A stretch of DNA of 64,000 nt from an uncultured Ignavibacteria bacterium (GCA_937873695.1 CALMYL010000008.1:173369-237368), one strand, 5' to 3'. Numbered from the stretch's first letter, positions 5,492 through 63,917 are shown. Notes: generated from the sequence alone by a model not told the origin. Translations and numbers: made by a program.

Positions 5492-6415
5492 ATGTTTAAA
5501 TTCAAATATCACATATTGATAGCTTCATTCCTTCTATCTGCAGTATTGTGGATAAGCTTGAATTTAAATCAATCCTTTGAAATTGAAAAGACAGTTCCCG
5601 TTAAGATAAATATTAATAAGCCCTATGCTGTTTCAGGCAATATTCCTCTCAATATTGACGTGAAATTCCGCGGTGTGGGATGGAATCTTATCAGGCTTTT
5701 TACCTCTTTCAATCAGGAGTTTACTTATGACATTAATGCAAAGAAAAAAGACCAGTTTATCATACTTACAAAGGAATATCTGGATAATAATCTCGGCTTA
5801 AGCCAGAATCTTCAGATAATAGGAGTATCACCGGAAACTTTGTTTGTAAAGATCGAAAGCTATGAAGAGAAATATGTTAAGATAATTCCGAATCTCCAGA
5901 TAAACTGCATGGAGGGATACCAGGTCGTAGGTAGACCTGAGATTCGGCCTGACAGCATAAAGATAGGCGGCGCAATTGATATTTTGAGGATGCTTGACCA
6001 TCTGTATACCAGGAATATGTTATTTGATAAAGTAAATGCCGGTATTTCAAGGAAAATTAACGTCTCCGATAGTCTTTCGAATATACTTTGGTTTTCACAA
6101 AATGAACTTGACCTTAAGGTGAATATTGAGCCAACTGCTGAAAAAGAATTTGCCGATATTGAAATTAAAGTTACTGAACTACCGGATGATAAAGAGGTGC
6201 TGCTGATACCGCAGTCTGTTACAGTACAGCTAAAAGGCGGTGTAAATCAGCTTGCGGGAATTGAGCCAGGTAAGATCAAAGCGCACATAGATTACCGCAA
6301 AATATTATCAGATTCAACAGGTTCACTGACTCCGGTTTTTGATATTCCGGCAGGCAGCACGGTGATCTCGGCAAAACCCGAAACTATACAATACGTAATA
6401 AAAAAGAAATATTAA
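5492..6415 (+). CDS. YbbR-like domain membrane protein
   Basis: It has an N-terminal TM helix. This is followed by repeated modules of the type 'VPVKININKPYAVSG...IDVKFRG', 'PEIRPDSIKIGGAIDIL' and 'LIPQSVTVQLKGGVNQL', which are typical of YbbR repeats. Confidence 0.45.
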   Translation: MFKFKYHILIASFLLSAVLWISLNLNQSFEIEKTVPVKININKPYAVSGNIPLNIDVKFRGVGWNLIRLFTSFNQEFTYDINAKKKDQFIILTKEYLDNNLGLSQNLQIIGVSPETLFVKIESYEEKYVKIIPNLQINCMEGYQVVGRPEIRPDSIKIGGAIDILRMLDHLYTRNMLFDKVNAGISRKINVSDSLSNILWFSQNELDLKVNIEPTAEKEFADIEIKVTELPDDKEVLLIPQSVTVQLKGGVNQLAGIEPGKIKAHIDYRKILSDSTGSLTPVFDIPAGSTVISAKPETIQYVIKKKY

Positions 6416-6431
6416 ACTATCCGGATAATTT

Positions 6432-7199
6432 TTGAATTCATTAAAAACAGAACTTGGTTCTCTTTGGACTGCAATAAAAACTCTTAGCTTTAAAGAGACA
6501 TTTATTTTTTTATCTGTTGCTGTGATCACATTTCTTTCGATGCATTACGCATCACCTAATTTCTTCAGGAAAGTATTTGATACCAGTGATGATAAATTTT
6601 ACTCATTCCTGTATTGGTGCTCTGCTGACGGGTTTTTGATGTTTATTATCCCGATGATTCTGATACCCCTGGTATTGAAAGGTAAACCTGCTGATTATGG
6701 CTTCAGGCTTGGTGATTACAAATTCGGGCTGAAATCTTCGCTGCTTTTTGTTATTGTTATGATCCCATTTCTTTGGATCGCATCCGGTAATGAGAGTTTT
6801 GCCAGAACTTACCCGCAAGGGGGACCCTTTGTAAGGGAAAATATATCAGTACTTTTATATTATGAGTTGTTTGTGGGTTTTTATATGCTTGCCTGGGAGT
6901 TCTTTTGGAGGGGTTACATGTTGTTTGGACTGAAACAAAGATTTGGATTTTATGCAATTTTTATCCAAATGATCCCGTTCTTTATATTACACAGGGGTAA
7001 GCCGGATATCGAAACTTTTGCTTCTATTTTCGCGGGGCTTATACTTGGTATTCAGGCATGGCGAGCCAATTCATTCATTTATTGCTTTCTTGTTCATTGG
7101 GCCGTTATGATTTTTGTGGATGTGATCTCCGTTCTGCGATATAAGTCGCAGTCTTATGGTATTGGAATAGATGCATTTATTAAACTATTTACAAATTAA
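6432..7199 (+). CDS. CPBP-family intramembrane protease (CAAX-protease-like)
   Basis: It is a multi-TM protein with an E-x-x-x-R motif (WEFFWRGY) and a later FLVHW histidine motif. The start codon is TTG. Confidence 0.6.
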   Translation: MNSLKTELGSLWTAIKTLSFKETFIFLSVAVITFLSMHYASPNFFRKVFDTSDDKFYSFLYWCSADGFLMFIIPMILIPLVLKGKPADYGFRLGDYKFGLKSSLLFVIVMIPFLWIASGNESFARTYPQGGPFVRENISVLLYYELFVGFYMLAWEFFWRGYMLFGLKQRFGFYAIFIQMIPFFILHRGKPDIETFASIFAGLILGIQAWRANSFIYCFLVHWAVMIFVDVISVLRYKSQSYGIGIDAFIKLFTN

Positions 7200-7210
7200 A
7201 TTTTACCGAA

Positions 7211-7933
7211 ATGAGACTTTGTATTAATATTGATCATATTGCGACCTTAAGACAGGCAAGGTTGGAAAAAGAACCTGATCCGGTTTTTGCCGCTTATATC
7301 TGTGAAATGGCCGGAGCTGATGGTATCGTTTGCCACTTAAGAGAAGACAGAAGGCATATTGTTGATAGAGATGTTCATATTCTGAAGGAGACAGTTAAGA
7401 CCAAATTGGACCTTGAAATGGCAGCCACAGATGAAATGGTTAAGATAGCTTGTGAGATAAAACCATACATGGCAACTTTGGTTCCTGAAAAAAGACAGGA
7501 ACTTACTACCGAAGGCGGACTGGACCTTGTTGCAGCCGAATTTAAAGTAACACCGGCATTAGAAAAACTCAAAGAAGCCGGTATCAAAACAAGTGTTTTT
7601 ATAGAGCCAAATCCGGAAAGTGTTGACCAGGCTCTTGAAATGGGTGCTGATATGATAGAGATCCATACCGGTAAATACGGCTTGCTAAGTGAACCGCTTG
7701 AAGTATTGGCCGAACTTGAAAGGATAAGCCAGACCGCTAAGCTTGCCAAAGAACTTGGTATTGGCGTGAATGCAGGTCATGGTCTTAATTATCTTAACAT
7801 CACTGCTATTGCCAATATTTCTGAAATAGATGAAGTAAGCATAGGGCACTCAATTATTGCACGTGCAGCTTTTACCGGGCTTGAAAATGCAGTAAAGGAT
7901 ATGCTTACTATAATCAGAAGAGTAAGACAGTAA
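7211..7933 (+). CDS. pdxJ: Pyridoxine 5'-phosphate synthase
   Basis: It resembles E. coli PdxJ over its full length (INIDHIATLRQAR, HLREDRRHI, LVPEKRQELTTEGGLD, VNAGHGLNY, IGHSIIARA). Confidence 0.95.
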   Translation: MRLCINIDHIATLRQARLEKEPDPVFAAYICEMAGADGIVCHLREDRRHIVDRDVHILKETVKTKLDLEMAATDEMVKIACEIKPYMATLVPEKRQELTTEGGLDLVAAEFKVTPALEKLKEAGIKTSVFIEPNPESVDQALEMGADMIEIHTGKYGLLSEPLEVLAELERISQTAKLAKELGIGVNAGHGLNYLNITAIANISEIDEVSIGHSIIARAAFTGLENAVKDMLTIIRRVRQ

Positions 7934-30159: not shown

Positions 30160-30699
30160 ATGTTAAACAACCACAAATTAAAGTTCTTAATTGCTTTAAT
30201 GGTTATGTTTGCGGTTGGCTATGTATGCAGCTCAAACAAAGATGATAAGAAGGAAGATAAGAAAGAGGACACAAAGAAAGAGGATACGAAGAAAGAAGAT
30301 ACAAAGTCTGACGAAAGAAAGACCGAAGACAGGAAAACCGATGAAACTTCATCAAGCGATGTTAAGCTCTATTTCTGTGAAGAATACACAGGAGGCAAAG
30401 AAATAGGCAAGTCAGATGAGTTCATTATCGGCAGAAACGGCGGATATTTTACCTGCATGATCGATATGAGAGGCTCAGGAAAGAAAATTGGAGTTGGCAA
30501 GCTTGAGCTCAGGATCACAAAACTTGGGAACAGCGAAAAAATTATAGCCACAGAAAAATTTGACGTACAGCCTGACTGGGATTATATCTTCTTCGATAAA
30601 TTCCACACATTCTATTCAGCAGGTGACTACAAAGTTACAGCTTTAAAACCTGATGGAACACCGGTTGCATCTGGCGAAGTAAAAATTTCAATGAAATAA
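30160..30699 (+). CDS. Putative lipoprotein with a KKEDT low-complexity linker and a C-terminal 'YFCE' beta-rich domain
   Basis: AAAGGAG lies upstream. It has a signal peptide ending ...VGYVC. A (KKEDT)n tract is encoded at about 30238-30345. The C-domain is paralogous to the next gene. Confidence 0.45.
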   Translation: MLNNHKLKFLIALMVMFAVGYVCSSNKDDKKEDKKEDTKKEDTKKEDTKSDERKTEDRKTDETSSSDVKLYFCEEYTGGKEIGKSDEFIIGRNGGYFTCMIDMRGSGKKIGVGKLELRITKLGNSEKIIATEKFDVQPDWDYIFFDKFHTFYSAGDYKVTALKPDGTPVASGEVKISMK

Positions 30700-30824: not shown

Positions 30825-31214
30825 ATGATTAAAAAATTACTCACCTCAGCGCTGTTCGCAGTTGCTCTTCTGCTTATCAGCAGCAGCACCAACGCGCAGT
30901 CAATTTATTTCTGCGAAGGCGTATCCGATGACGGATATCCTATCACAGAAAGCTCAACATTCAACATCGGCTCAGGCGGCGGATATGTTTACGTGCTTGT
31001 AAGGCTTCCGTATGAGATAGCATGCCGTTCAGTAAGATTTGAAGTTTATAAGAACGGCGCTTATGACAACACAATATATGTTGATACAGAAAAAAGCTGG
31101 GTTTGGTTCTGGAAGAAAGTTACATTTTACGATGCAGCAAGGTATGAATTTGAAGTTTATGACTGTTTTGATTACAAATTAACTTCAGGCAGTGTAAGAA
31201 TTAACTGGAGATAA
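30825..31214 (+). CDS. Secreted 'YFCE'-domain protein, paralogue of the 30160 C-domain
   Basis: It has a signal peptide (ISSSTNAQS). It shares YFCE...F.IG..GGY...W.Y/WFW.K..F...G/A.Y...SG.V.I with the upstream gene. Confidence 0.45.
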   Translation: MIKKLLTSALFAVALLLISSSTNAQSIYFCEGVSDDGYPITESSTFNIGSGGGYVYVLVRLPYEIACRSVRFEVYKNGAYDNTIYVDTEKSWVWFWKKVTFYDAARYEFEVYDCFDYKLTSGSVRINWR

Positions 31215-32681
31215 TTTTGATTTATATTTAGAATTTGAAGGCAGCTTTTTGGGCTGCCTTTTTTTTATATACTCATTGATTTTTTCCAGTAACCATTCTT
31301 TATAAGAAAATCTTTTAGAATTCTGTATTTCACTTAACAGACTAGGAATTTTTTTTAAATTGTTAATTTCAAGTAGACTGATGTACCTTGTTAAAAATTT
31401 TACAAAATTTTTTTGATTGCTTTTCATAAAAGGATAAACTACACGATTTTTATTACAGTAACTGAATAATTGACTGCTAAGTAACCGTACAGATTTAAAA
31501 TCGTTTAGTTCAAAGAAACAAATTAATGAATTACTCATTGCCTGTACTTTATAATACCAATGGTTGTGTTTAACTTTGCTAAAAAATTGGATTGCTTTGC
31601 CAAATTCTTTCATTGAACTATGCAATTTACCTAAGGCTGTATTTACTACGGAATTAGCAATTTTTGAATTGAGGTATTTGTTATACTTATCAATGAAAAC
31701 CAGTGTATCAGGAAATTTTTTCATTCTAAGCTGCAAACATACGGTATTGATAAAAATACTATCTGGAATAAAGCCTTTGGAATCAATAGTTGTTTCTATC
31801 TGATGCAACCTTAATTCTAGTTCTTCATTGCAATATCTGGTTAAAGACTCTAAACTTCTTTCCTCAACTAGAAAATTTAAGAGATAAGAATAAACTAGTG
31901 ATTTTTCATTTATAGAAATGTTATCATAATTTTTGTATAAAATTTCTTTTAATTTATGATAATAAATCTCATTTTTAGTTTGCCTTAATTTAAACTTGTA
32001 GTATTGTATCTGAACTGATATGGGATATTCTTGAATATTCAACTTTTCAATGTAACTACTAATGTGATTTCCAAAATCACAATTTATCTTTTGCTTTTGT
32101 GAAGAAGAAATAAGTTTTGCTGCACTGTAGTATTTTAGACTTGCTTCAAAAACTAAAAGATCTAATTTATTGATTAATTGAGAAAGCAAATTTGGATGGA
32201 TGCTGTTACTAAGACGAATGCTTAAGTCAAAAACCTGTTCAACCTTACTTAATATTACACTGGGTACGTCATTTATGGAAGAGTCCGTTTTAATATTCTG
32301 AATTAGTTGTTCCAGATACTTTTGTTCATCATATTTAAATGACATTGAGGATATCTGATCGTGCAGAAGTTTCTTCTTTAAGGATTCATTCTTTTCTAAA
32401 TGTAGAAATAGGAGGAAATTCTTCAGAATTAACAGCATCTCCGAACTTAAATTTCTTAATTTTTTATCACTAAATTTTCCTTCTTTAAATACATAATTGA
32501 AAATAATTTCCTTTGCTAACCCTGTAGTAAGCAATTTATCGTAATGCTTTTTGATATAACTATATAGGATGATTATATTTTTATTTGTGTTGTAAATTGG
32601 AGATAATAAAAATTTATGAAGTAATTTAAATTCATCCTTGTTCAATAATCTGATGATTTTAAGAAATTTTGGGTTATACAT
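31185..32681 (-). CDS. Hypothetical ~500 aa helical protein, paralogue of 49934..51439
   Basis: This is a long uninterrupted ORF in a very AT-rich patch. Its N-terminal motif LNKDEFKLLHKFLLSPIYNTNKNIIILYSYI matches LTRDEIRSLRKFIISPYFNRSQKVVKLFDII in the other gene. The lengths are similar and the ...WLL.K... C-terminal regions also match. Confidence 0.5.
   Translation of the reverse strand: MYNPKFLKIIRLLNKDEFKLLHKFLLSPIYNTNKNIIILYSYIKKHYDKLLTTGLAKEIIFNYVFKEGKFSDKKLRNLSSEMLLILKNFLLFLHLEKNESLKKKLLHDQISSMSFKYDEQKYLEQLIQNIKTDSSINDVPSVILSKVEQVFDLSIRLSNSIHPNLLSQLINKLDLLVFEASLKYYSAAKLISSSQKQKINCDFGNHISSYIEKLNIQEYPISVQIQYYKFKLRQTKNEIYYHKLKEILYKNYDNISINEKSLVYSYLLNFLVEERSLESLTRYCNEELELRLHQIETTIDSKGFIPDSIFINTVCLQLRMKKFPDTLVFIDKYNKYLNSKIANSVVNTALGKLHSSMKEFGKAIQFFSKVKHNHWYYKVQAMSNSLICFFELNDFKSVRLLSSQLFSYCNKNRVVYPFMKSNQKNFVKFLTRYISLLEINNLKKIPSLLSEIQNSKRFSYKEWLLEKINEYIKKRQPKKLPSNSKYKSKLSPVNSYTA
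31238..31266 (+). terminator. Rho-independent terminator after the 30825 gene
   Basis: AAGGCAGC-loop-GCTGCCTT is followed by a T-run of 8 or more. It lies inside the 3' tail of the convergent 31185..32681 ORF. Confidence 0.55.
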
Positions 32682-32873
32682 ATTTTATATAATAAGTGGA
32701 CAATTTTAGGAATCTGTTTTAATAAAAATAGCCTAAAATAAGCTGAAATTCAAGTATTTTATTAATTATAAATTTTATAATTAGTTAAAATGAATGGACA
32801 TTTGAGATTATTTTGTATTTGCTATGTGGAAATAATAAATATATATTTGAATAACTTAAAAATCAAATTACTT

Positions 32874-33944
32874 ATGATATTTGCCGACCGGAATATCAGC
32901 ACAAAAAAAGTCTTACAAAATTATTCAATCTATTTGATATTGTTTCCCGTTTTTTTATTCTTAGCCTGCAAAGAAGATCCAACTTCACCAAATCCGCCTC
33001 CTGTTATTATAGATACCGTTGACAGATATGAATGGTCAATGGATACAATATACGGTTACGCGTTTAACAATTTATATGTAGCCGATTCAAGTAATATCTT
33101 TATAACCTCTCCGCTTTCTCTTGTCTATTATAATGGCGAGACATACTCGTCTATTAGTATAAATGATCCCGATTTTCGCTTTGTAGGTGTAAAAGGTTTT
33201 GATAAAAATAATGTTTTTGCCGGTGGAAACAGAGTTAACTCAAGTACACCTGTTTTAAAGAAAGTAGAAAATACAAGTGTTTCTAGCTATGATATAACCG
33301 GTGATACGGGGGGTACTATTTCAGGTATATTTGTTGAGGGACCTAATCAGTCGTGGTTATCAATTTCTGAAAGTAACACGATTTATTTTTTCAATTCAGG
33401 GTTAATTACACCCTATACATTAGACAGTGGTGTGAGATCAGGCGGATTTTTTAGAGATTCATTAAATATATTGTATTATATCGGAATGAAATTATATCCA
33501 AATGACAATTTTAGATTTTATATCTATGAATATATAAATGATTATTTTAATTTAGTTAATATTGATAGTATTAACACAATATCCGAATTATACGGCGCAA
33601 TAACAATATGTGGTTCGGATTTTATTGCTATGGGCAGAACTTCAATTTATTATTTCACTAATGATAGATTGGAAAAATTGTGTAATACCCCCAATTTTCT
33701 ACCCATTAAAATATGTGGCTCTTCAAAAAATCATTTGGTCTGTTATGGCCAAACTAGTGATATAACTGGGGCTATTTTCACATGGGATGGAGAAAAATGG
33801 CATGAAGAAAAAAGCCAAATAATACCAGATAAATTTTATTATGCTGTAAGAAGTACGATGGTTAATGGAAGAGTAAATATAATTATAAGCGATAATTTTA
33901 ACTTAGGCAGGTCTTATCATTTAAAAGGAGTTCCAAAAAAATAG
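32874..33944 (+). CDS. Putative lipoprotein with beta-propeller-like repeats
   Basis: The likely start is the ATG at 32874 (MIFADRN...LFPVFLFLAC lipobox), not 32790. It has repeated blade-like segments (NIFITSPLSLVYYNG, NNVFAGGNRV, FIAMGRTSIYYF, HLVCYGQTSDITGAIFTWDGEKW). Confidence 0.45.
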   Translation: MIFADRNISTKKVLQNYSIYLILFPVFLFLACKEDPTSPNPPPVIIDTVDRYEWSMDTIYGYAFNNLYVADSSNIFITSPLSLVYYNGETYSSISINDPDFRFVGVKGFDKNNVFAGGNRVNSSTPVLKKVENTSVSSYDITGDTGGTISGIFVEGPNQSWLSISESNTIYFFNSGLITPYTLDSGVRSGGFFRDSLNILYYIGMKLYPNDNFRFYIYEYINDYFNLVNIDSINTISELYGAITICGSDFIAMGRTSIYYFTNDRLEKLCNTPNFLPIKICGSSKNHLVCYGQTSDITGAIFTWDGEKWHEEKSQIIPDKFYYAVRSTMVNGRVNIIISDNFNLGRSYHLKGVPKK

Positions 33945-33963
33945 AATGGAGGATTACCCCCCC

Positions 33964-33988
33964 GTTGTTGGTGTTTTTCACCAACAAC
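33964..33988. repeat. Perfect 10-bp hairpin downstream of the lipoprotein gene
   Basis: GTTGTTGGTG-TTTTT-CACCAACAAC. No T-run follows, so it is not a canonical terminator. Confidence 0.5.
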
Positions 33989-34007
33989 TAGTATTAAAAA
34001 AATAGGA

Positions 34008-34125
34008 CACTGATATCGACTTTCATAAAGTCAACGTCGTAGCGGATTTTACGAATACACACGGATAAAATCCGTGAAAATCAGTCTCATCCGTTAAATC
34101 CGTGTTCTGATTTCTACTGTCTTTA
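34008..34125. repeat. Copy of the dispersed intergenic repeat family (ACACTGAT / TAGCGGATTTT / ATCCGT motifs)
   Basis: The sequence is GGACACTGAT...GTAGCGGATTTTACGAATACACACGGATAAAATCCGTGAAAATCAGTCTCATCCGTTAAATCCGTGTTCTGAT. It contains the 9-bp inverted repeat CGGATTTTA/TAAAATCCG and iterated ATCCGT. Confidence 0.5.
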
Positions 34126-34171
34126 CCAGCAACTTATAAAAAACCTTTATTTTAGCTATATTTGTAGCTGA

Positions 34172-35749: not shown

Positions 35750-36439
35750 TTAATGGTGATGATCATGATGTTCATGATGTATTTCATCAAGAAGCTCGCG
35801 TTTATTGGCTTTAGTGCCGGCATTCATTGATACAATATAACTTGGCACACCGATATCATTCATAACGCATGGCACGAGTACGGATATTACCAGTATTGGC
35901 AGGAAAATCAGCGCTTTTAGTGAAATTACTTCAACTCCGTATGTAATAAGGTACATTCCCGCTGCTGTTGAGCTTAGGAATATATGCAAACCGTGTGTAT
36001 AACGTGAGAGCTTGCGGACCGACTGTGAGAGCAGGAATCCAAGTAACGCGCCTGTAATGATAAACGTCCATGCTGTAACCGGTTCTTCAATTATGCATAC
36101 ATGAAAGTGCATATCGTAGCCAAGTGCAAGTCCGCCAAGGTATGGCAGAACAATATCGCTTAATGTGCATGTTATTGATGAAGTAAGTATTGCGACAAAA
36201 ACCCCAAGCCAAAGTGCCTTTTTGTATTTTGCGAGAAGTGATGCGGGCGTAAGCGAAGCAAAGAATAAATGTGCGATGAAAAATCCTTCGAAAAGATGTT
36301 CTGTTTCAGGTGCGGCTTCGGGGAAAATGGCAAGCTTTAATATTGCGATAATTATCCCGGATACAACAACAGCTCCGGCTGTAAATTTCCAGTGGGTACT
36401 CAGTTCATCTATGAAAATGTTCTTGTGTGTATGTTCCAT
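35750..36439 (-). CDS. Polytopic membrane protein with a His-rich C-terminal tail (possible metal binding)
   Basis: It has about 6 TM helices, a C-terminus reading ...DEIHHEHHDHHH, and an N-terminus reading MEHTHKN. No family was recognised. Confidence 0.4.
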   Translation of the reverse strand: MEHTHKNIFIDELSTHWKFTAGAVVVSGIIIAILKLAIFPEAAPETEHLFEGFFIAHLFFASLTPASLLAKYKKALWLGVFVAILTSSITCTLSDIVLPYLGGLALGYDMHFHVCIIEEPVTAWTFIITGALLGFLLSQSVRKLSRYTHGLHIFLSSTAAGMYLITYGVEVISLKALIFLPILVISVLVPCVMNDIGVPSYIVSMNAGTKANKRELLDEIHHEHHDHHH

Positions 36440-36983: not shown

Positions 36984-37175
36984 ATGCAAAGTACAAAACT
37001 AAAAGAATCTCTGATAAAAATTGCAGAAAGGGTTGAGCCGGATACTACCCTTGAAGATATATATAAATAGCTTGCTTATCTTTCGGATATAGAAGAATCA
37101 GAAGAACAGAATTCCCGTGGTGAAGTTGTTACCCAGGAGGAAGTTGAGAAGAAGTTTAGAAAATTAGTGTTATAA
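36984..37175 (+). pseudogene. Small acidic ORF (62 sense codons) interrupted by one in-frame TAG
   Basis: From the ATG at 36984 it reads MQSTKLKESLIKIAERVEPDTTLEDIYK, then TAG (37068-70), then in the same frame LAYLSDIEESEEQNSRGEVVTQEEVEKKFRKLVL and TAA at 37173-75. Confidence 0.35.
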
Positions 37176-37331
37176 GAATACCGCCCCTTATTTGCTTGAT
37201 TTATTCTAAATAAATAATTATTGTTGCTTTACACGCTAGGGGGTTGGCAAGACACTATGTCTTATTAGCTTCCTATTTTATTTTCAGTTCTTTATAATTT
37301 TATTGAAAATTATAAAAATTAATTTTATCAA

Positions 37332-38660
37332 ATGTCTAAATTGAAAAATAAAACAATTAGAATCAAAAGAATTATTGTAGAAAAGTTATTTGGCTTTTAT
37401 AGTTATGATTTAATCGTTAAGAATATTAACGATGATTTAAGCAGATTAATGATTTTGTATGGAGATAATGGTGTAGGTAAAACGACCATTTTGAGATTAT
37501 TGTTTTACCTTATTTCAACACTAGACAATAGTGGATACAAATCTGAAATTGCCAAAACCAAGTTTAAAAGATTTTCTGTAATGTTTGACAATGGTGTTGA
37601 AATTACGGCCGAAAGAAATAGTAAGGATTTAATTGGTACGTATACCTATGGCATTAGAAAAAGAAGTAAAATTGTATATGCGCAAACACTGAAAGTACAA
37701 GATGATTTAACTATAAGACTTGATGAAAAATCAAAAGAATATCAAGTTTACAACAATATTTTGAGGTACATTAAAGAATTAAATATTCTAGTCTTTTACT
37801 TATCAGATGAAAGAGAATTGTTGATCGGTGATTTAGAAAAAAAAGATGATGGTGATTATTTTGATACAGAAACTATAATTACTGCATCAGGCCAAAAAAG
37901 AAAAATTCGCAATGAGTCGAAACATTTTTTGCTTGAGAACACTGTAAATAAACTTAATAACTGGATTCGAACTCAAGTTTTAAAAGCTTCAAATTTAGGT
38001 TCACAAAATACGAACAATATATATCTTGAAATTATTAAACAAATTGTACAATCAAAGAAGGGTTTTAAAACGTTATCAGTTTCAAAGAGAAGCGCAGAAG
38101 TAATAAACAATTTATCGAAAATAGAAAAAGTTGCCGCTGAGTATTCAAAATTTGGGATAATTTCAATGTTTGACTTCAATGAGCTAAAAAAGTTAATTGT
38201 AAATATACCAAATTATAAACTGAAGATAATCTTTAATATTTTGGAACCTTATATCGAGGGAATACAAGCAAGATTAGAAGCCTTGTCGTCAGTGCAAACT
38301 GTTATTTACAAATTTGTTAGTAGCGTAAATACATATTTCAAAGATAAAGTGATAAATTATCATTTATCGTCAGGTTTTAGAATATTTGATAAGGAAAATG
38401 TGAAATTGGATTTAAATAAACTTTCTTCAGGTGAGAAGCAAATGCTTATATTATTCTGTAATGCCATAACAGCAAACGATGAAGGCACAATATTCATTAT
38501 CGATGAACCTGAAATTTCTTTGAATATCAAATGGCAAAGGGAACTCTTAATGACTCTACTAAACTTTAGTAGTGATGGAAAAGTGCAATTTATTCTAGCA
38601 ACACATTCAATTGAATTACTAACTCCATTTAGAGAAAACGTAACTAGGTTATTTAATTAA
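37332..38660 (+). CDS. SMC/ABC-type ATPase with a long helical insertion (AriA-like / OLD-ATPase-like)
   Basis: It has Walker A G44DNGVGKTT52, ABC signature L364SSGEKQ370, Walker B I387FIIDE392 and H-loop ATH425S. The N-terminal IKRIIVEKLFGFYSYDL is RecF/SMC-like. The gene is very AT-rich. Confidence 0.7.
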   Translation: MSKLKNKTIRIKRIIVEKLFGFYSYDLIVKNINDDLSRLMILYGDNGVGKTTILRLLFYLISTLDNSGYKSEIAKTKFKRFSVMFDNGVEITAERNSKDLIGTYTYGIRKRSKIVYAQTLKVQDDLTIRLDEKSKEYQVYNNILRYIKELNILVFYLSDERELLIGDLEKKDDGDYFDTETIITASGQKRKIRNESKHFLLENTVNKLNNWIRTQVLKASNLGSQNTNNIYLEIIKQIVQSKKGFKTLSVSKRSAEVINNLSKIEKVAAEYSKFGIISMFDFNELKKLIVNIPNYKLKIIFNILEPYIEGIQARLEALSSVQTVIYKFVSSVNTYFKDKVINYHLSSGFRIFDKENVKLDLNKLSSGEKQMLILFCNAITANDEGTIFIIDEPEISLNIKWQRELLMTLLNFSSDGKVQFILATHSIELLTPFRENVTRLFN

Positions 38661-38664
38661 ATAG

Positions 38665-39543
38665 ATGCCAGACTCTAATATTCCTAGAAATAATATTGAA
38701 GAAATAATATCAAAGTTCGATTTAGAACCAGATTCTCGCGCTATTTTTGTTGAGGGCATAACTGACCAAAACTTTTTCGAACAATTTATTGAAGAAAATA
38801 ATTTGAAAAATGTGGCTGTTAATTTAATTGAATGGTTTGACTTCAGTAATCATTTTGATGATAATCCTGAACTGATTAGAAATAATAAGGAAAAGGTAGT
38901 TTTTCTATCAAATTGTTTCAAGAATAAATTAAGTGTTTTTAATGAAAACATTATGTTTATAGTTGATAAAGATTTTGATAAATTAATATTCAGAACATAT
39001 GATAATGATTATATATTCACAACAGATTATAATTCTATTGAATTGTATTTGTTTAATAAAAAATTCTTAGAAAAATATTTCAAAGTTGTGTTACATGGTT
39101 TTCCAATATCTTCTCTTGATACATTAAAAAAATTGAGTACAATTTTACAAGAATTATTTATTATTCAATTTGTTGTAAAATCATATAATGCTGATATTGA
39201 AATGATTAGATTGAATAATTCTTGTGAAATTAAAAAAAATGGAGAAATTAAATTTGATTTCGAAGATTATTTGACTAGATTGCTAAATAAAAATAAAATG
39301 TTAAAACTAAAGAAGAATATTATAGATGTTATTTCTGAATCTAAAATTTTATTTGAAGAAGAAATCAGAAACCAAATTTGTGGACATATGTTTTTTGATT
39401 TATTATATTTGTATATAAATAAAATTAAAAACAATATTGATCTCAAACTAGCTTCATTTCAAAGGACAATTTTCCTAACTGTTGATTATAAAGATTTATG
39501 TAAAGAACCGTTATTTGCTAAATTAATAAAAACCTATAGTTAA
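38665..39543 (+). CDS. DUF4435/TOPRIM-like protein (AriB-like putative nuclease effector)
   Basis: It starts 4 nt after the ATPase stop. It has acidic motifs AIFVE30GITD34 and MFIVD101KD103FD in the TOPRIM E...DxD arrangement. It is 292 aa and very AT-rich. Confidence 0.55.
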   Translation: MPDSNIPRNNIEEIISKFDLEPDSRAIFVEGITDQNFFEQFIEENNLKNVAVNLIEWFDFSNHFDDNPELIRNNKEKVVFLSNCFKNKLSVFNENIMFIVDKDFDKLIFRTYDNDYIFTTDYNSIELYLFNKKFLEKYFKVVLHGFPISSLDTLKKLSTILQELFIIQFVVKSYNADIEMIRLNNSCEIKKNGEIKFDFEDYLTRLLNKNKMLKLKKNIIDVISESKILFEEEIRNQICGHMFFDLLYLYINKIKNNIDLKLASFQRTIFLTVDYKDLCKEPLFAKLIKTYS

Positions 39544-49933: not shown

Positions 49934-51439
49934 TTATACCGCCTTCTTAACAGATTTGTCAAGACTTTGTACTTTGGAGAGCAGCCAGATTTTTGAATTT
50001 ATAGTCTTGCATTTATTTAAACGGACCATTAGTGAGCTCAAGTCAGTCTTTGAATTTGTATTGTGGTAGTTAATGAGTTTTACAACATATTTGCATAAGT
50101 TCTCGCATCCGGTACGTTTCTCATCACTTACCATTGTATTATCTTTCAGGTATTTTCTGAAAGCGTTTGCAGCTGAAAGCGCAGCATCATGCTCACCAAG
50201 CTCGTAGTACAGCATTATATACAGGCTCCTGATATCAAGATGATACGAAAATTCTTCCAGACGTATTCTGCTTAACCATTTGAGTGAATCATCAAAATTA
50301 CCCTGCTCAAACCTAAGGAATGCGTAACTGTAATTGATAACGTCTGTTTTTCTGCGGGGGTGGATCTGCCTGCCGTATTCTTCTATGAATTCCTCAAGCC
50401 ACCTTAGCTCCTTCATCTTTACGGCCTGTATAAGTATATTCCTGTAAAGATCAACAGGCATGTACTTACTTGCTTCGGTCTGGTAATATTTAGCAGTGAG
50501 CATTTTTTTGTATATTCCAAAAAGTTCGTTCTCATATTTCAGGTCATTTGGAGGAAGTGTTTCTCTCTTCAGTATGCAGTATCCGCTCAACCTGGCAAAA
50601 AGAAAATGTTTATCTGTCTGGCTGAATCTTTCCAGGTTATCAAATACCGATGATTTGAGCTGTGAGTAATACTCTTCATTATCAAAATACAGGTAAGCTT
50701 TAAGCGAATTTATATATGCCTGTACTATCTCTATTCCGGATAGAGAGTGTGTTTTCATGAATATTTCAAGACGCTGGAAATCGAACAAATCAAGGAATTG
50801 TGATATGAATTTCTTATTTTGTTTTATGTTGAAAGAGCGGGAATAATTGAGAAGCGTATCATTATGTTTGATCGATTCAAGCATGAAGTAGCTTATAAAA
50901 TATGTGATGCCGTTAATCAGCTTGCCTGCTTCGGTATCTACAAAACTCTTTTTGTTTATCTTATCATTTATCATCCCGAAATAGAACTTTTCGGTTTCCA
51001 GCTTGAACTTGTTGAGGCATGAATCCGCATCAATGTGCTCAATGGAATTCATGATTTTTTCAGCATCCCTTATGGTTATAGAATGCATTCTTTCAGCGCC
51101 TCTGATAGCAAGTTCTTCTATGGTGAAAATGGCTGATTCAGCTTCTTTTCTGTCTACATACTGCTGCCGAATAAATTTCGAGATAAGCTGCTGGAGGTCG
51201 TAAAGAAGCCTGCGCATGGTGACTTCGTTATAAGGCAGCTTAGGGGATATTTTTCTATGCAGCTCCTCTTTGGAAAGTTTTGGACTTTCAAAGTTAGGAT
51301 GAAATTTTATAATAATATCAAATAATTTAACCACTTTTTGGCTGCGGTTAAAGTACGGAGATATTATGAACTTTCTGAGTGATCTAATTTCATCTCTGGT
51401 AAGGGATTCCAGCAATTCTATGAACGCATAATCCAGCAT
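49934..51439 (-). CDS. Hypothetical ~500 aa helical protein, paralogue of 31185..32681
   Basis: It shares the N-terminal L..DE...L.KF..SP..N motif, is similar in length (501 vs 498 aa), and has a TPR-like helical C-half (FEQGNFDDSLKWL...LYYELGEHDAALSAANAF). Confidence 0.5.
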   Translation of the reverse strand: MLDYAFIELLESLTRDEIRSLRKFIISPYFNRSQKVVKLFDIIIKFHPNFESPKLSKEELHRKISPKLPYNEVTMRRLLYDLQQLISKFIRQQYVDRKEAESAIFTIEELAIRGAERMHSITIRDAEKIMNSIEHIDADSCLNKFKLETEKFYFGMINDKINKKSFVDTEAGKLINGITYFISYFMLESIKHNDTLLNYSRSFNIKQNKKFISQFLDLFDFQRLEIFMKTHSLSGIEIVQAYINSLKAYLYFDNEEYYSQLKSSVFDNLERFSQTDKHFLFARLSGYCILKRETLPPNDLKYENELFGIYKKMLTAKYYQTEASKYMPVDLYRNILIQAVKMKELRWLEEFIEEYGRQIHPRRKTDVINYSYAFLRFEQGNFDDSLKWLSRIRLEEFSYHLDIRSLYIMLYYELGEHDAALSAANAFRKYLKDNTMVSDEKRTGCENLCKYVVKLINYHNTNSKTDLSSLMVRLNKCKTINSKIWLLSKVQSLDKSVKKAV

Positions 51440-51673
51440 TTTCGCAATTATTTATATGTAAATATAAGCAACTCAAAATCAGTAGTCAATAGTATATTTA
51501 ATTAAAAAAATGCCCAAAAACAGCACAAAATGGGGAGATAGGTGAAATAGAAGAGCAAAAATAAGCAACTTTAGGCTTAAAATGTAGTGGCAGAGTCTGA
51601 ATTTATGAGTTATGTTTGAACAGATAAGAAAATAAACAAACAATTAATAACAATCCCTATAAAAACAGTAAAA

Positions 51674-51886
51674 ATGAAAAAGACATTATTAACAATCGCA
51701 ATTACCCTTAGCCTTTTAACCGGTTTCACATCAGTAAGTACCTTTGCAGCAGTAAATACAGTAAATACGGCAGAAACAAGCGCAGCAAGAGTATATATAA
51801 AGGTTTATGAAGATGGCGCAATTTGGGTGTACGTGTACGAAGAAGACGGAACATATGTTGGTAAGTTTATAGATGAAAGTTTTTAA
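51674..51886 (+). CDS. Small secreted protein (possibly the 5' half of a decayed T9SS cargo gene)
   Basis: It has a signal peptide (LLTGFTSVSTFAA) followed by about 45 aa. It is followed 17 nt later by a tail-only ORF in another frame. Confidence 0.3.
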   Translation: MKKTLLTIAITLSLLTGFTSVSTFAAVNTVNTAETSAARVYIKVYEDGAIWVYVYEEDGTYVGKFIDESF

Positions 51887-51903: not shown

Positions 51904-52125
51904 TTGTCTAAGATCAAATTCAGCATAGAAAAGCCCGGAGAAGTTACCCTTGAGATTTTCAATCTGATAGGCTTAAAAATTGATGAACTTCCGGCCGGAC
52001 ATCTTGAAGTGGGGGATCACACGGTGTTCTGGAAGCCAAAATACAATCTTTCGGGCAGTGTGCTGAACTACAGAATAGAGCTGAATAAACAGGTTATCAA
52101 GGAAAACATGTTTATTGTTAGATAG
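51904..52125 (+). pseudogene. Stand-alone T9SS C-terminal sorting-domain ORF (fragment)
   Basis: It has a TTG start directly after an in-frame TAA. The sequence KIKFSIEKPGEVTLEIFNLIGLKIDEL...HTVFW...YRIELNKQVIKENMFIVR covers only a T9SS-type tail. Confidence 0.4.
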
Positions 52126-52217: not shown

Positions 52218-52255
52218 TAGAGCAGTAAATGAAGATTTACTGCTCTATTTTTATT
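52218..52255 (+). terminator. Strong rho-independent terminator
   Basis: A 13-bp perfect stem, TAGAGCAGTAAAT-GAAG-ATTTACTGCTCTA, is followed by TTTTTATTTT. Confidence 0.7.
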
Positions 52256-52305: not shown

Positions 52306-52575
52306 TTGTTTAATCCGGTTACTAAAATAAAATATACATTAAAATACGATTCTAAAGTTACTTTGAGGGTTTATAATATCCTTGGACAGTTGATTAAAGA
52401 AATTGTTAATAGTTTTGAAAGTAAAGGATTTAAAGAAATTATATGGAACGGCACAAATGAATTTGGTAATCAGGTTTCAACCGGAGTATATTTTTATAAG
52501 TTAACCGCCCGTCACAATGCCGGGTCTTTGACTGGCGATTTTGTAGATCAAAAAAAGCTGGTTATTATCCGTTAA
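52306..52575 (+). pseudogene. 5'-truncated T9SS C-terminal sorting-domain remnant
   Basis: The ORF begins (L)FNPVTKIKYTLKYDSKVTLRVYNILGQLIKE...GVYFYKLTA, which falls inside the canonical NPFNPVT motif. An in-frame TGA lies 2 codons upstream. No cargo domain is present. Confidence 0.45.
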
Positions 52576-52599: not shown

Positions 52600-53838
52600 A
52601 TGAGTACAAAAACTAGAAATATTAAAGTATCAATCTTTGCAGTTTTCTTTTTTGTTGCAATTACAAGTATCTACACACAACAAGGTTGGCAAAACCTAAA
52701 TACCACGTTTGGTGGGGGTGATATACATTTCAAAAATATAAATACCGGCATAATTTCAGGTTATAAGACAACTAATGCGGGAAATAACTGGTACCCAATT
52801 AATTTTAATGGTTATCTTAGTTTTCCCGATCAAAATACAGGTTATTCAACTGGTGGAGGGTTACTTTATAAAACTACAAATTTCGGTGATAACTATTTTA
52901 TGCAGAATCTTCCGCCTGGTATAATTCTAAACGATATAAACTTCCCAAATGTTAATATAGGTTATGGTTGCGGTGAGACTGGTAAAATTGTAAAAACTAT
53001 TAGTGGCGGTGATAACTGGTTTATTGTTAGTAATCCTTTGAACAACAATTACAATCTGTATAATATACAATTTATTGATTCAGAAACTGGTTATGTATCC
53101 GGTATTACTTATTTTTTAGATACCAGTGTGGTAATGAAAACCACTAATGGAGGAAATAACTGGAATGTACAGTATTATTTGCCTAGTAATTGGGGTATAT
53201 TCAGTGCGATGTATTTTGTAAATACATTGACAGGCTACATTGGTGCAGCCTCAAAAGGCTATATGCTAAAATCCACAAATGGAGGTGTTAACTGGCTGCA
53301 ATATAATATTCCGACATCAAACAGGATTTATTCAATTCACTTTCCCAGCGCTAACACTGGCTATGCAAGCTGTTACAGCGGGCAGATAATTAAAACAACA
53401 AACGCTGGAATTAACTGGTTTCTGCAAACAACTGGTACAGGCAGTTCATTACGAAGTATTTTTTTTATAAATGATCTAACCGGCTATTGCTCAGGTGAAA
53501 ATAACACTGTATTAAAAACCACCGATGGTGGCGGTGCGCCTATTGGTATTTCGCCAATAAGCACCGAAGTGCCGAAAGATTTTGTTCTTGAACAGAATTA
53601 TCCAAATCCGTTCAATCCTGTTACCAATATTAATTTCAGTATTCCAAAAGCCGGATTTACTTCGATCAGGATATATGATATAATGGGCAGGCTTGTCCAT
53701 ACACTTTTCGAAACACAGTTAGCCCCGGGCAGTTACAAGGCTGACTGGGATGCCTCACAAATGCCTTCGGGGATTTATATATACCGAATCGAAAGCGGCA
53801 ATTATACGCAAAGCAGGAAAATGATTTTAATAAAATAA
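52600..53838 (+). CDS. Ycf48/BNR-like seven-bladed beta-propeller protein with T9SS C-terminal sorting domain
   Basis: It has a signal peptide and seven repeats of the K-T-T-N-G-G-x-N-W type (TTNAGNNW, TTNFGDNY, ISGGDNW, TTNGGNNW, STNGGVNW, TTNAGINW, TTDGGG). The tail reads LEQNYPNPFNPVTNINFSI...GIYIYRI. Confidence 0.7.
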   Translation: MSTKTRNIKVSIFAVFFFVAITSIYTQQGWQNLNTTFGGGDIHFKNINTGIISGYKTTNAGNNWYPINFNGYLSFPDQNTGYSTGGGLLYKTTNFGDNYFMQNLPPGIILNDINFPNVNIGYGCGETGKIVKTISGGDNWFIVSNPLNNNYNLYNIQFIDSETGYVSGITYFLDTSVVMKTTNGGNNWNVQYYLPSNWGIFSAMYFVNTLTGYIGAASKGYMLKSTNGGVNWLQYNIPTSNRIYSIHFPSANTGYASCYSGQIIKTTNAGINWFLQTTGTGSSLRSIFFINDLTGYCSGENNTVLKTTDGGGAPIGISPISTEVPKDFVLEQNYPNPFNPVTNINFSIPKAGFTSIRIYDIMGRLVHTLFETQLAPGSYKADWDASQMPSGIYIYRIESGNYTQSRKMILIK

Positions 53839-62477: not shown

Positions 62478-63917
62478 ATGATCAAAAACTTAAAATTACT
62501 GCTCATTCTCTCGTTTTTCGCGGCGGCGCAGGTTTACCCGCAGGTAAACTTTGTAAATGCGTTTCCCAATCTTTCATTTTCACTGCCCTTGTTCTTAACA
62601 CACTCAGGTGATGGCACCAACAGGATATTTGTTGTGCAGCAGCGCGGAATAATAAAAGTATTCCCGAATGATTCAATGACAACCAATGTTCAGAATTTCA
62701 TTGATCTATCCAACATAGTAAGCTCATCCGGCAATGAAAGAGGTTTGCTGGGGCTTGCCTTCCACCCGAACTATTCATCCAACAGATATTTCTTTGTCTA
62801 TTATACCAGGCAAAGCGATGGGGCTCTGAGAATATCAAGGTTTACTACTCAATCAGGAAACCCCAATAAAGCAGATTCTTTAAGCGAGCTTAATATGCTC
62901 ACAATAGCCCACCCAACATACTCAAATCATAACGGCGGATGCCTGATGTTCGGCGCAGATGGTTATCTCTATGCCGGCACAGGTGATGGCGGCTCAGGCG
63001 GTGACCCCAATGCGAACGCGCAAAATGTTAATGTTCTTCTCGGTAAAATTTTAAGAATTGATATCAACACTCCAAGCGGCGGTAACAATTACAGTATTCC
63101 TCCAACAAATCCGTTCGCAGGCGGCGGCGGAGCGCCTGAAATATACGCTATCGGTATGAGAAACCCGTGGAGATTTTCACGTGACGCAGTCACAGGCACT
63201 ATCTATTGCGGTGATGTAGGACAGGATGCCTGGGAAGAAATTGATACTCTTGCAGTTGGTAAGAACTATGGCTGGAGATGTTATGAAGGAAATGCAACTT
63301 ATAATACTTCAGGATGCGGACCAATCGGAAATTATACATTCCCCATTGCAGTTTACCAGAATGTTGGTTCTGATATATCTGTGACCGGTGGGTATGTTTA
63401 CCGCGGGTCAAGGGTGCCGTGGCTTGTTGGCAGGTATATTTACGCTGATTATGGCAGCAGAAAAGTATGGAAGCTGCTTCTTAGCGGCGGCGCTGTTAGC
63501 GATAATTCGGTGATTGGCATTGCTCCGCAGGGTGTTCCTTCATTCGGGGTTGACCAGAGCAATGAGTTATATATTGTAGGCTCAAGCGGTACTATATTCA
63601 AATTACAGGATGCTTTGATTGGCGTGCAGGGGACATCGAACGAAATACCAAATGGATTTTCTCTGGAACAGAATTATCCGAATCCATTCAACCCCACCAC
63701 AAATATATATTACAATGTTGGTATGACAAGTGTTGTCAGCATTTCAGTTTACGATATGACAGGTAAAGAAGTTGCTGTACTTTTGAATGAATCGAAACCT
63801 GCGGGAAGGTATTCAGTTGAATTCAATGCTTCAAACTTGCCAAGCGGAGTCTATTTCTATAAAATGACAATTAACGGCAGCCAGTCAATTGAAAAGAAAA
63901 TGGTGTTGGTAAAGTAA
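62478..63917 (+). CDS. PQQ-dependent (soluble) sugar dehydrogenase-like beta-propeller with T9SS C-terminal sorting domain
   Basis: It has ERGLLGLAFHPNY, HNGG, GMRNPWRFS and GKNYGW. The tail reads LEQNYPNPFNPTTNIYYNV...GVYFYKM. Confidence 0.8.
   Translation: MIKNLKLLLILSFFAAAQVYPQVNFVNAFPNLSFSLPLFLTHSGDGTNRIFVVQQRGIIKVFPNDSMTTNVQNFIDLSNIVSSSGNERGLLGLAFHPNYSSNRYFFVYYTRQSDGALRISRFTTQSGNPNKADSLSELNMLTIAHPTYSNHNGGCLMFGADGYLYAGTGDGGSGGDPNANAQNVNVLLGKILRIDINTPSGGNNYSIPPTNPFAGGGGAPEIYAIGMRNPWRFSRDAVTGTIYCGDVGQDAWEEIDTLAVGKNYGWRCYEGNATYNTSGCGPIGNYTFPIAVYQNVGSDISVTGGYVYRGSRVPWLVGRYIYADYGSRKVWKLLLSGGAVSDNSVIGIAPQGVPSFGVDQSNELYIVGSSGTIFKLQDALIGVQGTSNEIPNGFSLEQNYPNPFNPTTNIYYNVGMTSVVSISVYDMTGKEVAVLLNESKPAGRYSVEFNASNLPSGVYFYKMTINGSQSIEKKMVLVK

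Follow-up and report, generated by a model that had tools for sequence, protein, structure and literature searches.

The cargo proteins of the type IX secretion system (T9SS) comprise adhesins, gliding-motility proteins and degradative enzymes, which define the contact of Bacteroidota with surfaces, polymers and hosts. Known regulation of this system is provided by the PorX/PorY two-component system together with the extracytoplasmic function (ECF) sigma factor SigP, which act globally over the secretion machinery; to our knowledge, T9SS regulation is understood only at this machinery level, and literature searches did not find a cargo-specific T9SS regulator. In type III secretion, tetratricopeptide repeat (TPR) chaperones of the SycD/LcrH/IpgC class, which are about 160 aa long with three TPRs, are encoded in operons with their substrates, and some of them double as transcription co-activators. 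The present analysis concerns a stretch of 64,000 nucleotides from an uncultured Ignavibacteria bacterium (CALMYL010000008.1:173369-237368), here called the window, and within it two copies of a family of helical proteins whose relatives in Bacteroidota are encoded head to head with T9SS cargo genes. We see the family, so far undescribed and with an orphan N-terminal domain, as a partner of secreted-protein genes that resembles a local regulator.

An initial annotation of the window, made from the sequence alone, described a divergent gene pair consisting of a 498-aa minus-strand open reading frame (ORF) and a plus-strand lipoprotein gene with a start at 32874, separated by a spacer of about 190 bp, and proposed that the 498-aa protein is a paralogue of a 501-aa protein encoded further along. 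Both the gene layout, with a spacer at 32682..32873, and the paralogy are confirmed here. The genes concerned are as follows:

31185..32681, minus strand: family copy A, 498 aa; an ORF matched by the family hidden Markov model (HMM), predicted to be cytoplasmic and all-helical, a divergent member
49934..51439, minus strand: family copy B, 501 aa; an ORF matched by the family HMM at E=5.8e-100, a more typical member
32874..33944, plus strand: 356-aa putative lipoprotein, the first gene of divergent unit A, with a signal segment and an invariant Cys32 and no sorting domain

Copies A and B, the sole family members within the window, give a full-length BLASTP alignment with composition-adjusted statistics (E=3e-16, 19% identity). 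Since the family HMM matches each copy over its full length (copy A at E=1.7e-52, over HMM positions 1-467), the paralogy is real and not compositional, and a compositional artefact as the cause of the similarity is ruled out; the two proteins are evidently true but remote paralogues.

The reading favoured here, which we regard as evenly balanced between right and wrong, is that the family protein may be a locus-specific transcription regulator acting on the spacer that it shares with its neighbour. It is suggested by the cytoplasmic location of the protein, a head-to-head and inherited linkage to T9SS genes, a conserved spacer length, a conservation of spacer A that exceeds that of the adjacent coding DNA, and paired repeats in the spacers.

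The family and its linkage to T9SS cargo genes

The family was delimited by an exhaustive HMMER search, seeded with an alignment of 12 distant homologues from a word-indexed search (the family profiles used were A1, A2 and A6), which retrieved 12,689 representatives of 50%-identity clusters at E<=1e-3, of which 7,724 reach E<=1e-30; with few exceptions, the members are 460-490 aa long, and the match extends over their whole length. Wherever a source names a member, the name is 'hypothetical protein', and none has a precomputed Pfam domain. Full-text literature searches found no description of the family, and we know of no T9SS component or regulator that belongs to it. Copies A and B and 24 consensus-like relatives have no curated match in Pfam or NCBIfam, which rules out a known regulator or T9SS component for these proteins and agrees with the earlier statement that the 498-aa protein could not be assigned to a known family. 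A defence system was considered and rejected for both copies and for the 356-aa partner, none of which has a PADLOC match. The invariant or near-invariant columns of the family include an SPxFN loop towards the N-terminus and a W-L-L motif towards the C-terminus, and the motifs that had been picked out by eye in the two window proteins prove to be the most conserved columns of the whole family.

An N-terminal hydrophobic segment was found in 0 of 124 members, and a borderline hydropathy (1.62) anywhere in the protein in just one; because the members are without N-terminal hydrophobic or transmembrane segments, the family is predicted to lack signal peptides and to be cytoplasmic. The net charge of the protein is about +5.5 overall. 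Several copies occur per genome, each adjoining a different cargo gene. Adjacent pairs of family genes also occur, tail to tail in L001 (8001-10882) and L064 and in tandem in L035 (L numbers denote individual loci or contigs); the pair in L001 faces outward, with a Por_Secre_tail cargo on one side and, on the other, an ORF with no Pfam match that overlaps a Por_Secre_tail ORF.

A divergent T9SS partner was present for 6 of the first seven independent homologues: L004 is the exception, and a Por_Secre_tail gene diverges from each of the two neighbouring paralogues in L001 and from the family gene in L003, L005/L006, L007 and L009. A survey was made of 80 loci from 69 reference assemblies, nine of which give two or three loci each, all belonging to Bacteroidota (Chitinophagales, Saprospiraceae, Flavobacteriales and Vicingaceae); its query consisted of six sequences sharing LLKTYYE and NYCI(K/R)KIN, and the loci were obtained via two peptide patterns, with the best 80 kept. 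In this sample, the upstream neighbour of the family gene is divergent in 62 of 72 loci (86%), compared with 38 of the 128 remaining pairs of adjacent genes at these loci (p=6e-15), and the divergent, AT-rich spacer has a median length of 235 bp (interquartile range 190-264). A T9SS sorting domain is found in 56 of the 60 testable divergent upstream neighbours (55 Por_Secre_tail and 1 CHU_C), as opposed to 9 of 69 downstream neighbours (p=7e-22).

Pairs of orthologous family and cargo genes are retained from species to species, with the family gene in most cases conserved at least as well as the cargo, as in two orthologue pairs with identities of 76% for the family protein against 60% for the cargo and of 86% against 51%. 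Fast evolution as a trait of the family is rejected, since in Bacteroidota orthologue pairs the family gene is conserved as well as the cargo or better. Together, these data show a linkage to T9SS surface-protein genes that is one-to-one, head to head, vertically inherited and conserved in spacer length, the divergent unit being a single gene or a short operon.

When 54 partners were scanned over their full length, Big_9 domains were found in 17, Cadherin_5 in 15, SprB repeats in 8, PKD in 8, dockerin or cohesin in 4-5, DUF7619 in 3 and a BNR-type propeller in 1, and by this domain content the cargoes of the family as a whole are mostly adhesin-like repeat proteins (Ig, cadherin, PKD, SprB), not propellers. 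The cargoes are typically several hundred to about 1,600 aa long, often 800-1,600 aa. The initial annotation had proposed a functional two-gene module, made of a helical regulator or chaperone and a secreted partner, that would recur beside propeller or T9SS-cargo genes. The module idea is strongly supported, by the divergent pairing and the sorting-domain partner (62/72 and 56/60), as is the enrichment of T9SS cargo among the neighbours (56/60 against 9/69); what does not stand is the identity of the partner, since the true one is a T9SS cargo and not the lipoprotein at 32874..33944, nor the association with propellers, which are present in only 1 of the 54 partners.

Such a one-to-one relationship might also be expected of a cytoplasmic chaperone or targeting factor that is specific for one cargo and holds the large T9SS pre-protein before its export through Sec, an explanation by analogy that would be consistent with the TPR-like fold described below, with the presence of one family member per cargo gene and with cargoes that often reach 800-1,600 aa. 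We consider this distinctly unlikely. Chaperones are normally co-transcribed with their substrates, whereas here the two genes are head to head in 86% of loci; the passenger domains differ widely, yet the family is conserved throughout; and copy A has remained an intact ORF at 27% GC despite the loss of its cargo gene (see below). Furthermore, Sec carries T9SS substrates across the inner membrane in the unfolded state, and we know of no cytoplasmic chaperone for them, which likewise counts against a chaperone.

Divergent spacers, protein architecture and a possible mechanism

If the family protein is a regulator of its neighbour, as favoured here, then the shared spacer is where it would act. 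Spacer A was compared with its counterpart in L090, a contig from a syntenic relative, and the following elements are distinguished in the two spacers of the window:

32682..32873: divergent spacer A, 192 bp, 17% GC, about 95% identical to the L090 spacer
32697..32709, plus strand: proximal imperfect direct repeat TGGACAATTTTAG, 16-28 nt upstream of the ATG of the family gene, conserved in L090
32795..32806, plus strand: distal repeat TGGACATTTGAG, 98 bp from the proximal one and just upstream of the promoter-like site of the partner gene
32818..32849, plus strand: Bacteroidota-type promoter-like site TTTG-N20-TATATTTG, 25 nt upstream of the ATG at 32874, identical in L090
51440..51673: divergent spacer B, 234 bp, 27% GC, close in length to the family median of 235 bp

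The conservation of spacer A exceeds that of the partner coding sequence (83%), and the body of the family gene does not align as DNA with its L090 counterpart. The promoter consensus of Bacteroidetes is TTTG/TAnnTTTG. The proximal repeat of spacer A overlaps a one-mismatch -7-like box (TAAAATTG, minus strand), and the GGACATTTGA portion of the distal repeat is conserved in L090, as is the repeat TGGACA(A)TTT at 32697 and 32795 as a pair 98 bp apart; from the sequence, we infer that the repeat at 32697..32709 may have a functional role. In spacer B, ATAAGCAACT occurs twice without mismatch as a direct repeat, at 51464-51473 and again 97 bp further on, at 51561-51570. Thus each spacer of the window has a repeat pair with a separation of 97-98 bp, the proximal copy of which lies 16-34 nt from the ATG of the family gene.

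Footprints within orthologous groups show TAnnTTTG-like -7 boxes directed toward both genes and, in addition, group-specific elements that each occur twice, and 21 of 61 spacers contain the motif TTATCGGA, for the most part on the same strand. Exact 10-mer direct-repeat pairs number 13 in the module spacers, compared with 5.0 +/- 2.4 in shuffles; 7 of these 13 pairs (in 7 of 61 spacers) have a separation of 95-115 nt, for which the shuffles give 0.6 +/- 0.8, with 0 of 200 reaching 7, and control intergenic regions give 3 of 71 (p=4e-5 against 7 of 13). A general excess of internal repeats in the spacers was considered and set aside, because it is just modest relative to controls and one-mismatch repeats are mostly noise; the separation of the exact repeats alone stands out.

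The AlphaFold2 (AF2) model of copy A is all-helical, with a mean predicted local distance difference test (pLDDT) score of 75.8 that approaches 90 in the C-terminal half. Searched with Foldseek, the full-length model matches generic TPR-type solenoids only, of which NprR comes first (E ~1e-3, template-modelling (TM) score 0.33-0.44), followed at a similarly weak level by LapB, LGN, subunits of the APC and half-a-TPR (HAT) repeat proteins; across these solenoids the match probability is about 1.0, yet E is about 1e-3 to 1e-2 and the TM score 0.2-0.5. In Pfam, the TPR matches are sub-threshold only, with TPR_19 in copy B (18.5 bits against a cut-off of 25) and scattered matches in 2-3 of 24 members, and the family profile matches consensus TPR designs in the PDB at E ~1e-3. 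The modelled architecture of the family is described here as a basic N-terminal helical module followed by a TPR-like alpha-solenoid. The N-terminal module of copy A is located at:

32346..32681, minus strand: residues 1-112 of copy A, with seven helices, the invariant SPxFN loop and two basic patches

Folded alone with an alignment of 125 sequences, these residues give an AF2 model with a pLDDT of 90.2, a predicted TM score of 0.78 and the same number of helices. Alignment columns 1-30 have a net charge of +3.1 that is positive in 95% of members, columns 91-120 have a net charge of +2.7, and the middle of the protein is acidic.

In the proposed mechanism, the basic N-terminal module would contact the shared spacer, where the likely binding sites would be the paired direct repeats about 100 bp apart, one of which lies beside the start of the family gene in both spacers of the window. 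The solenoid may sense a signal or mediate oligomerisation, and in this way the family protein would control the promoter of the adjacent cargo gene as well as its own.

Several observations weigh against a transcription regulator. The main weakness is that the family has no recognisable DNA-binding fold: searches by Pfam, NCBIfam, PDB profile and Foldseek gave no winged helix-turn-helix (wHTH), helix-turn-helix (HTH), ribbon-helix-helix or other DNA-binding domain. For the N-terminal module in particular, the fold search of the PDB returned nothing better than E=1, with HTH proteins just among the very-low-probability matches; its profile has no sequence match in the PDB; and Pfam searches with 32 fragments gave no recurrent family and no HTH. 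An HTH in this module is accordingly rejected, nothing significant or recurrent having emerged from the fold and profile searches, and of the TPR or wHTH N-domain that the initial annotation proposed to look for, generic TPR-type solenoid matches were obtained with the full-length model, and no wHTH was found. In addition, the linkage follows the secretion route, as marked by the sorting domain, and not one passenger function, which would be unusual for a local regulator that senses a ligand. The separation window of 95-115 nt (about 100 bp) was picked after the data had been seen, and direct repeats of at least 9 nt occur in 36% of module spacers against 21% of control intergenic regions, a modest difference. 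Finally, the survey samples a consensus-like Bacteroidota core of the family, not its whole breadth, and its genes are crude longest-ORF calls.

While the context evidence would be the same, the missing DNA-binding fold would be accommodated by a protein that regulates the cargo gene with no DNA contact of its own, serving as an adaptor or anti-factor that binds RNA polymerase, a sigma factor or some other DNA-binding protein, and TPR-type solenoids are typical scaffolds for protein-protein interactions. However, no gene for such a factor is consistently nearby, an ECF sigma factor gene being close to the family gene only in L007 among the loci examined, and the basic N-terminus and paired spacer repeats fit direct DNA contact better, which makes an adaptor unlikely in our view. 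The HAT-repeat RNA-processing proteins RRP5 and RNA14 are also among the Foldseek matches, which for them are as weak as for the other solenoids, and together with the net basic charge of about +5.5 this raises the idea of a protein that binds the cargo mRNA through its helical repeats and controls how it is translated or how stable it is. This we hold to be very improbable: the solenoid matches are generic, the divergent arrangement and the conserved, non-transcribed features of the spacer would be left unexplained, and there is no known bacterial precedent tied to the T9SS. Among local controls of the adjoining T9SS surface-protein genes, the family is the best candidate yet for a dedicated switch.

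Locus A, locus B and other genes of the window

The L090 contig is collinear with the window at 83-91% nucleotide identity, and its gene order is nadC, two small secreted-protein genes, a 476-aa family gene (minus strand), the 356-aa lipoprotein gene (plus strand), a 1,154-aa Por_Secre_tail gene and a polysaccharide-synthesis gene. Two further features of locus A are relevant to the comparison:

33953..34140: 188-bp unique segment, where blastn collinearity with L090 breaks; L090 has 3.7 kb there, with the 1,154-aa cargo gene
31237..31261, plus strand: terminator-like hairpin that the 498-aa ORF, in whose low-confidence 3' tail it lies, has in common with the convergent 129-aa gene

No cargo remnant was found by tblastn at 33953-34140 in the window. 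The module of copy A is thus incomplete: it has kept the lipoprotein gene and lost the gene for a 1,154-aa propeller-type T9SS cargo. The L090 cargo has an N-terminal BNR/Ycf48-type propeller that is related to the propeller encoded at 52600..53838 of the window (E=2e-9), and because of this relationship both family copies are, in the lineage of the window, tied to a cargo with a BNR/Ycf48-type propeller, located at least one gene downstream of the divergent promoter. The 188-bp segment was considered as a repeat element or an RNA, which was rejected since it has no second copy in the window and no Rfam match; it holds a G+C-rich hairpin (GTTGTTGGTG...CACCAACAAC) and several short repeats of the ATCCGT type.

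The 356-aa protein is encoded by a plus-strand ORF that spans 32790..33944, and its translation probably starts at the in-frame ATG at 32874; this ATG is favoured over 32790 because the promoter-like site lies upstream of it and a protein starting there has a hydrophobic segment with FLFLAC at its N-terminus. The N-terminal hydropathy (2.49 over 15 aa), the following ...FLFLAC and the cysteine at position 32, invariant in all 5 relatives, are consistent with a lipoprotein. This much of the earlier description as a 'beta-propeller lipoprotein' is retained, and the propeller is unsupported: the protein has no Pfam or NCBIfam match at E<=1, and thus no Por_Secre_tail (TIGR04183) or CHU_C domain, its self-alignment does not reveal internal repeats above shuffles (best score 38 against 35.5 +/- 4.9), and hhalign comparison with the window propeller and the L090 cargo gives a probability below 1%. 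No relationship was found with the divergent neighbour in L001 that has no Pfam match, with the window propeller or with the L090 cargo. Only 5 relatives are known for this protein, one of them, 84% identical, in L090, and another, P0279 (35% identical), does not adjoin a gene of about 470 aa without Pfam match; for this reason the lipoprotein is regarded as an accessory and not as the conserved partner.

Copy A (31185..32681) and its L090 allele (5995..7425) share 46% identity over residues 1-100 and 26% over residues 101-475, whereas elsewhere the neighbouring proteins are 83-97% identical and the spacer DNA about 95%, so that the identity collapses at the ATG of the family gene. Relaxed selection after loss of the cargo was considered as the cause and rejected, because the L090 allele keeps its cargo and yet is equally divergent: neither allele is disrupted, and the distance to the family HMM is as great for one as for the other. 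The contrast would reflect either recombinational replacement of the allele or a lineage-specific diversification of the family gene. At the 3' end of the gene, residues 480-498 of copy A have a pLDDT below 50 in the AF2 model, and the L090 orthologue is 22 residues shorter.

The clean loss of the cargo gene in the window and the drastically different allele in two close relatives might also suggest that family and cargo genes are merely co-mobilised as a cassette without a functional link, or that the pairing seen in the window is coincidental. This would agree with a GC content of the family genes that is about 5 points under that of their neighbours in 95% of loci and with a DDE transposase gene beside one cargo gene (L005). 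In the loci examined, however, no integrase, transposase or repeat boundary generally accompanies the pair, the orientation and spacer length are conserved, the pairs are vertically inherited, and the enrichment statistics are extreme; we give scarcely any credence to this explanation and retain a locus-specific regulator as the favoured one. The GC difference sets the family genes apart from the other genes of their own loci and is not shared by the cargo genes. Since family genes are generally low in GC, the AT-richness noticed at locus A is partly a family trait. That this patch is more AT-rich than its flanks is correct, with GC contents of 26.7% for the copy A gene, 17.2% for spacer A and 31.5% for the 356-aa partner, against 37.9% for the whole window, and values down to 26-31% across 31-34 kb.

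Just downstream of the 3' end of copy A lie two genes for small secreted proteins, of 179 aa (30160..30699, plus strand) and 129 aa (30825..31214, plus strand), the second of which is convergent with the 498-aa ORF and overlaps its 3' end by 30 bp. By eye, the two proteins have a YFCE...G..I..S..F.IG..GGY motif in common and look like paralogues, and they are 93-97% conserved in L090. On the other side of the locus, a gene at 35750..36439 (minus strand) encodes a 229-aa multi-pass membrane protein with a His-rich tail (HHEHHDHHH), possibly a metal transporter, which is 97% conserved in L090.

Locus B was described in the initial annotation as a second family gene directly divergent from a secreted beta-propeller gene, a layout that does not hold, as the propeller gene begins at 52600 and is separated from copy B by 1.16 kb of small ORFs. 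In order along the window, the features beyond spacer B are:

51674..51886, plus strand: 70-aa ORF with a signal-peptide-like N-terminal segment, the immediate divergent neighbour of copy B, without a Pfam match
51904..52125, plus strand: 73-aa ORF in another frame, sorting-domain-like by eye, with a weak FlgD_ig match (E=0.32), possibly the remnant of a small cargo
about 52222-52250: terminator-like hairpin, seen by eye, after the 73-aa ORF
52306..52575, plus strand: orphan T9SS sorting-domain fragment of 89 aa without a passenger domain (FlgD_ig 1.2e-8, CHU_C 2.1e-6, Por_Secre_tail 5e-4)
52600..53838, plus strand: 412-aa BNR/Ycf48-type propeller with a T9SS type-A sorting domain (Por_Secre_tail 3e-13, PSII_BNR 1.6e-12, TIGR04183)

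Of the three small ORFs, only the third has significant sorting-domain matches, and it is also matched by tblastn with the C-terminal domain of the L090 cargo. The orphan fragments at 51904..52125 and 52306..52575 suggest that cargo genes of locus B were rearranged or decayed in the past. A T9SS type-A sorting domain at about 63624..63914 (plus strand) is matched by tblastn with the C-terminal domain of the L090 cargo at 47% identity (E=4e-19), and the window thus contains at least one further T9SS cargo gene without an adjoining family gene.

Another patch of low GC content, at 37001-39500 (27-28% GC), is an islet separate from the family loci. It holds two adjacent ORFs of 442 aa and 292 aa (37332..39543, plus strand) that resemble a two-gene anti-phage system of the AriA/AbiL type: the 442-aa ORF matches the AriA, AbiLi and PtuA ABC-type ATPase models of PADLOC (best E=1e-24), and the 292-aa ORF weakly matches the C-terminal half of AriAB, and AbiLii.

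Significance and comparison with known systems

For cargo-specific control of the T9SS, this family provides a concrete and testable handle. Thousands of 'hypothetical proteins' would become an interpretable class, a family gene would be a useful annotation flag for adjacent surface-protein loci, and, if the N-terminal module binds DNA, it would represent a new DNA-binding domain. The window shows one such locus in its state after the loss of the cargo gene.

Among the known systems, PorX/PorY and SigP are likewise concerned with T9SS-related expression, but they are global regulators, whereas the family occurs once per cargo gene and matches no NCBIfam or Pfam model. The type III chaperones of the SycD/LcrH/IpgC class resemble the family in having a TPR-type scaffold for particular secreted proteins and in a possible link between secretion and transcription; the family differs in its length of about 470 aa, in being divergent from its partner and in having a Sec-dependent cargo.

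Another comparison is offered by the RNPP quorum-sensing regulators of Firmicutes (NprR, PlcR, PrgX and Rap), which, like the family, are cytoplasmic proteins with a small N-terminal module and a long TPR-type solenoid, occur as multiple paralogues, and have as their targets, putative ones in the case of the family, secreted or surface factors. In fold, the match is weak (E ~1e-3, TM score 0.33-0.44) and no better than that to unrelated TPR proteins, and the phyla differ. Moreover, the XRE-type HTH of RNPP proteins was not found in the N-terminal module of the family, and where RNPP genes have an adjacent gene for a small secreted pro-peptide, the conserved neighbour of the family is instead a large T9SS cargo, the 70-aa ORF beside copy B being an isolated case.

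A parallel in genomic arrangement is with divergently transcribed local regulators such as the LysR-type regulators, which are also head to head with a presumed target across a short shared control region that bears repeats, with one regulator per target and many paralogues. This likeness is one of genomic logic only, as the family has no wHTH, no substrate-binding domain and no kinship to LysR-type proteins in sequence or fold. In its furthest extension, which we consider unlikely, the family could constitute a new class of transcription factors with an unseen DNA-binding fold, present in one copy per T9SS adhesin gene, whose paralogues would form a network that chooses, contingently or in a mutually exclusive manner, which adhesins are displayed by Bacteroidota and Ignavibacteriota, the solenoid reading a signal of secretion or surface state. 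The logic of such an adhesin-choice network would be comparable to that of the UpxY/UpxZ control of capsule loci in Bacteroides.

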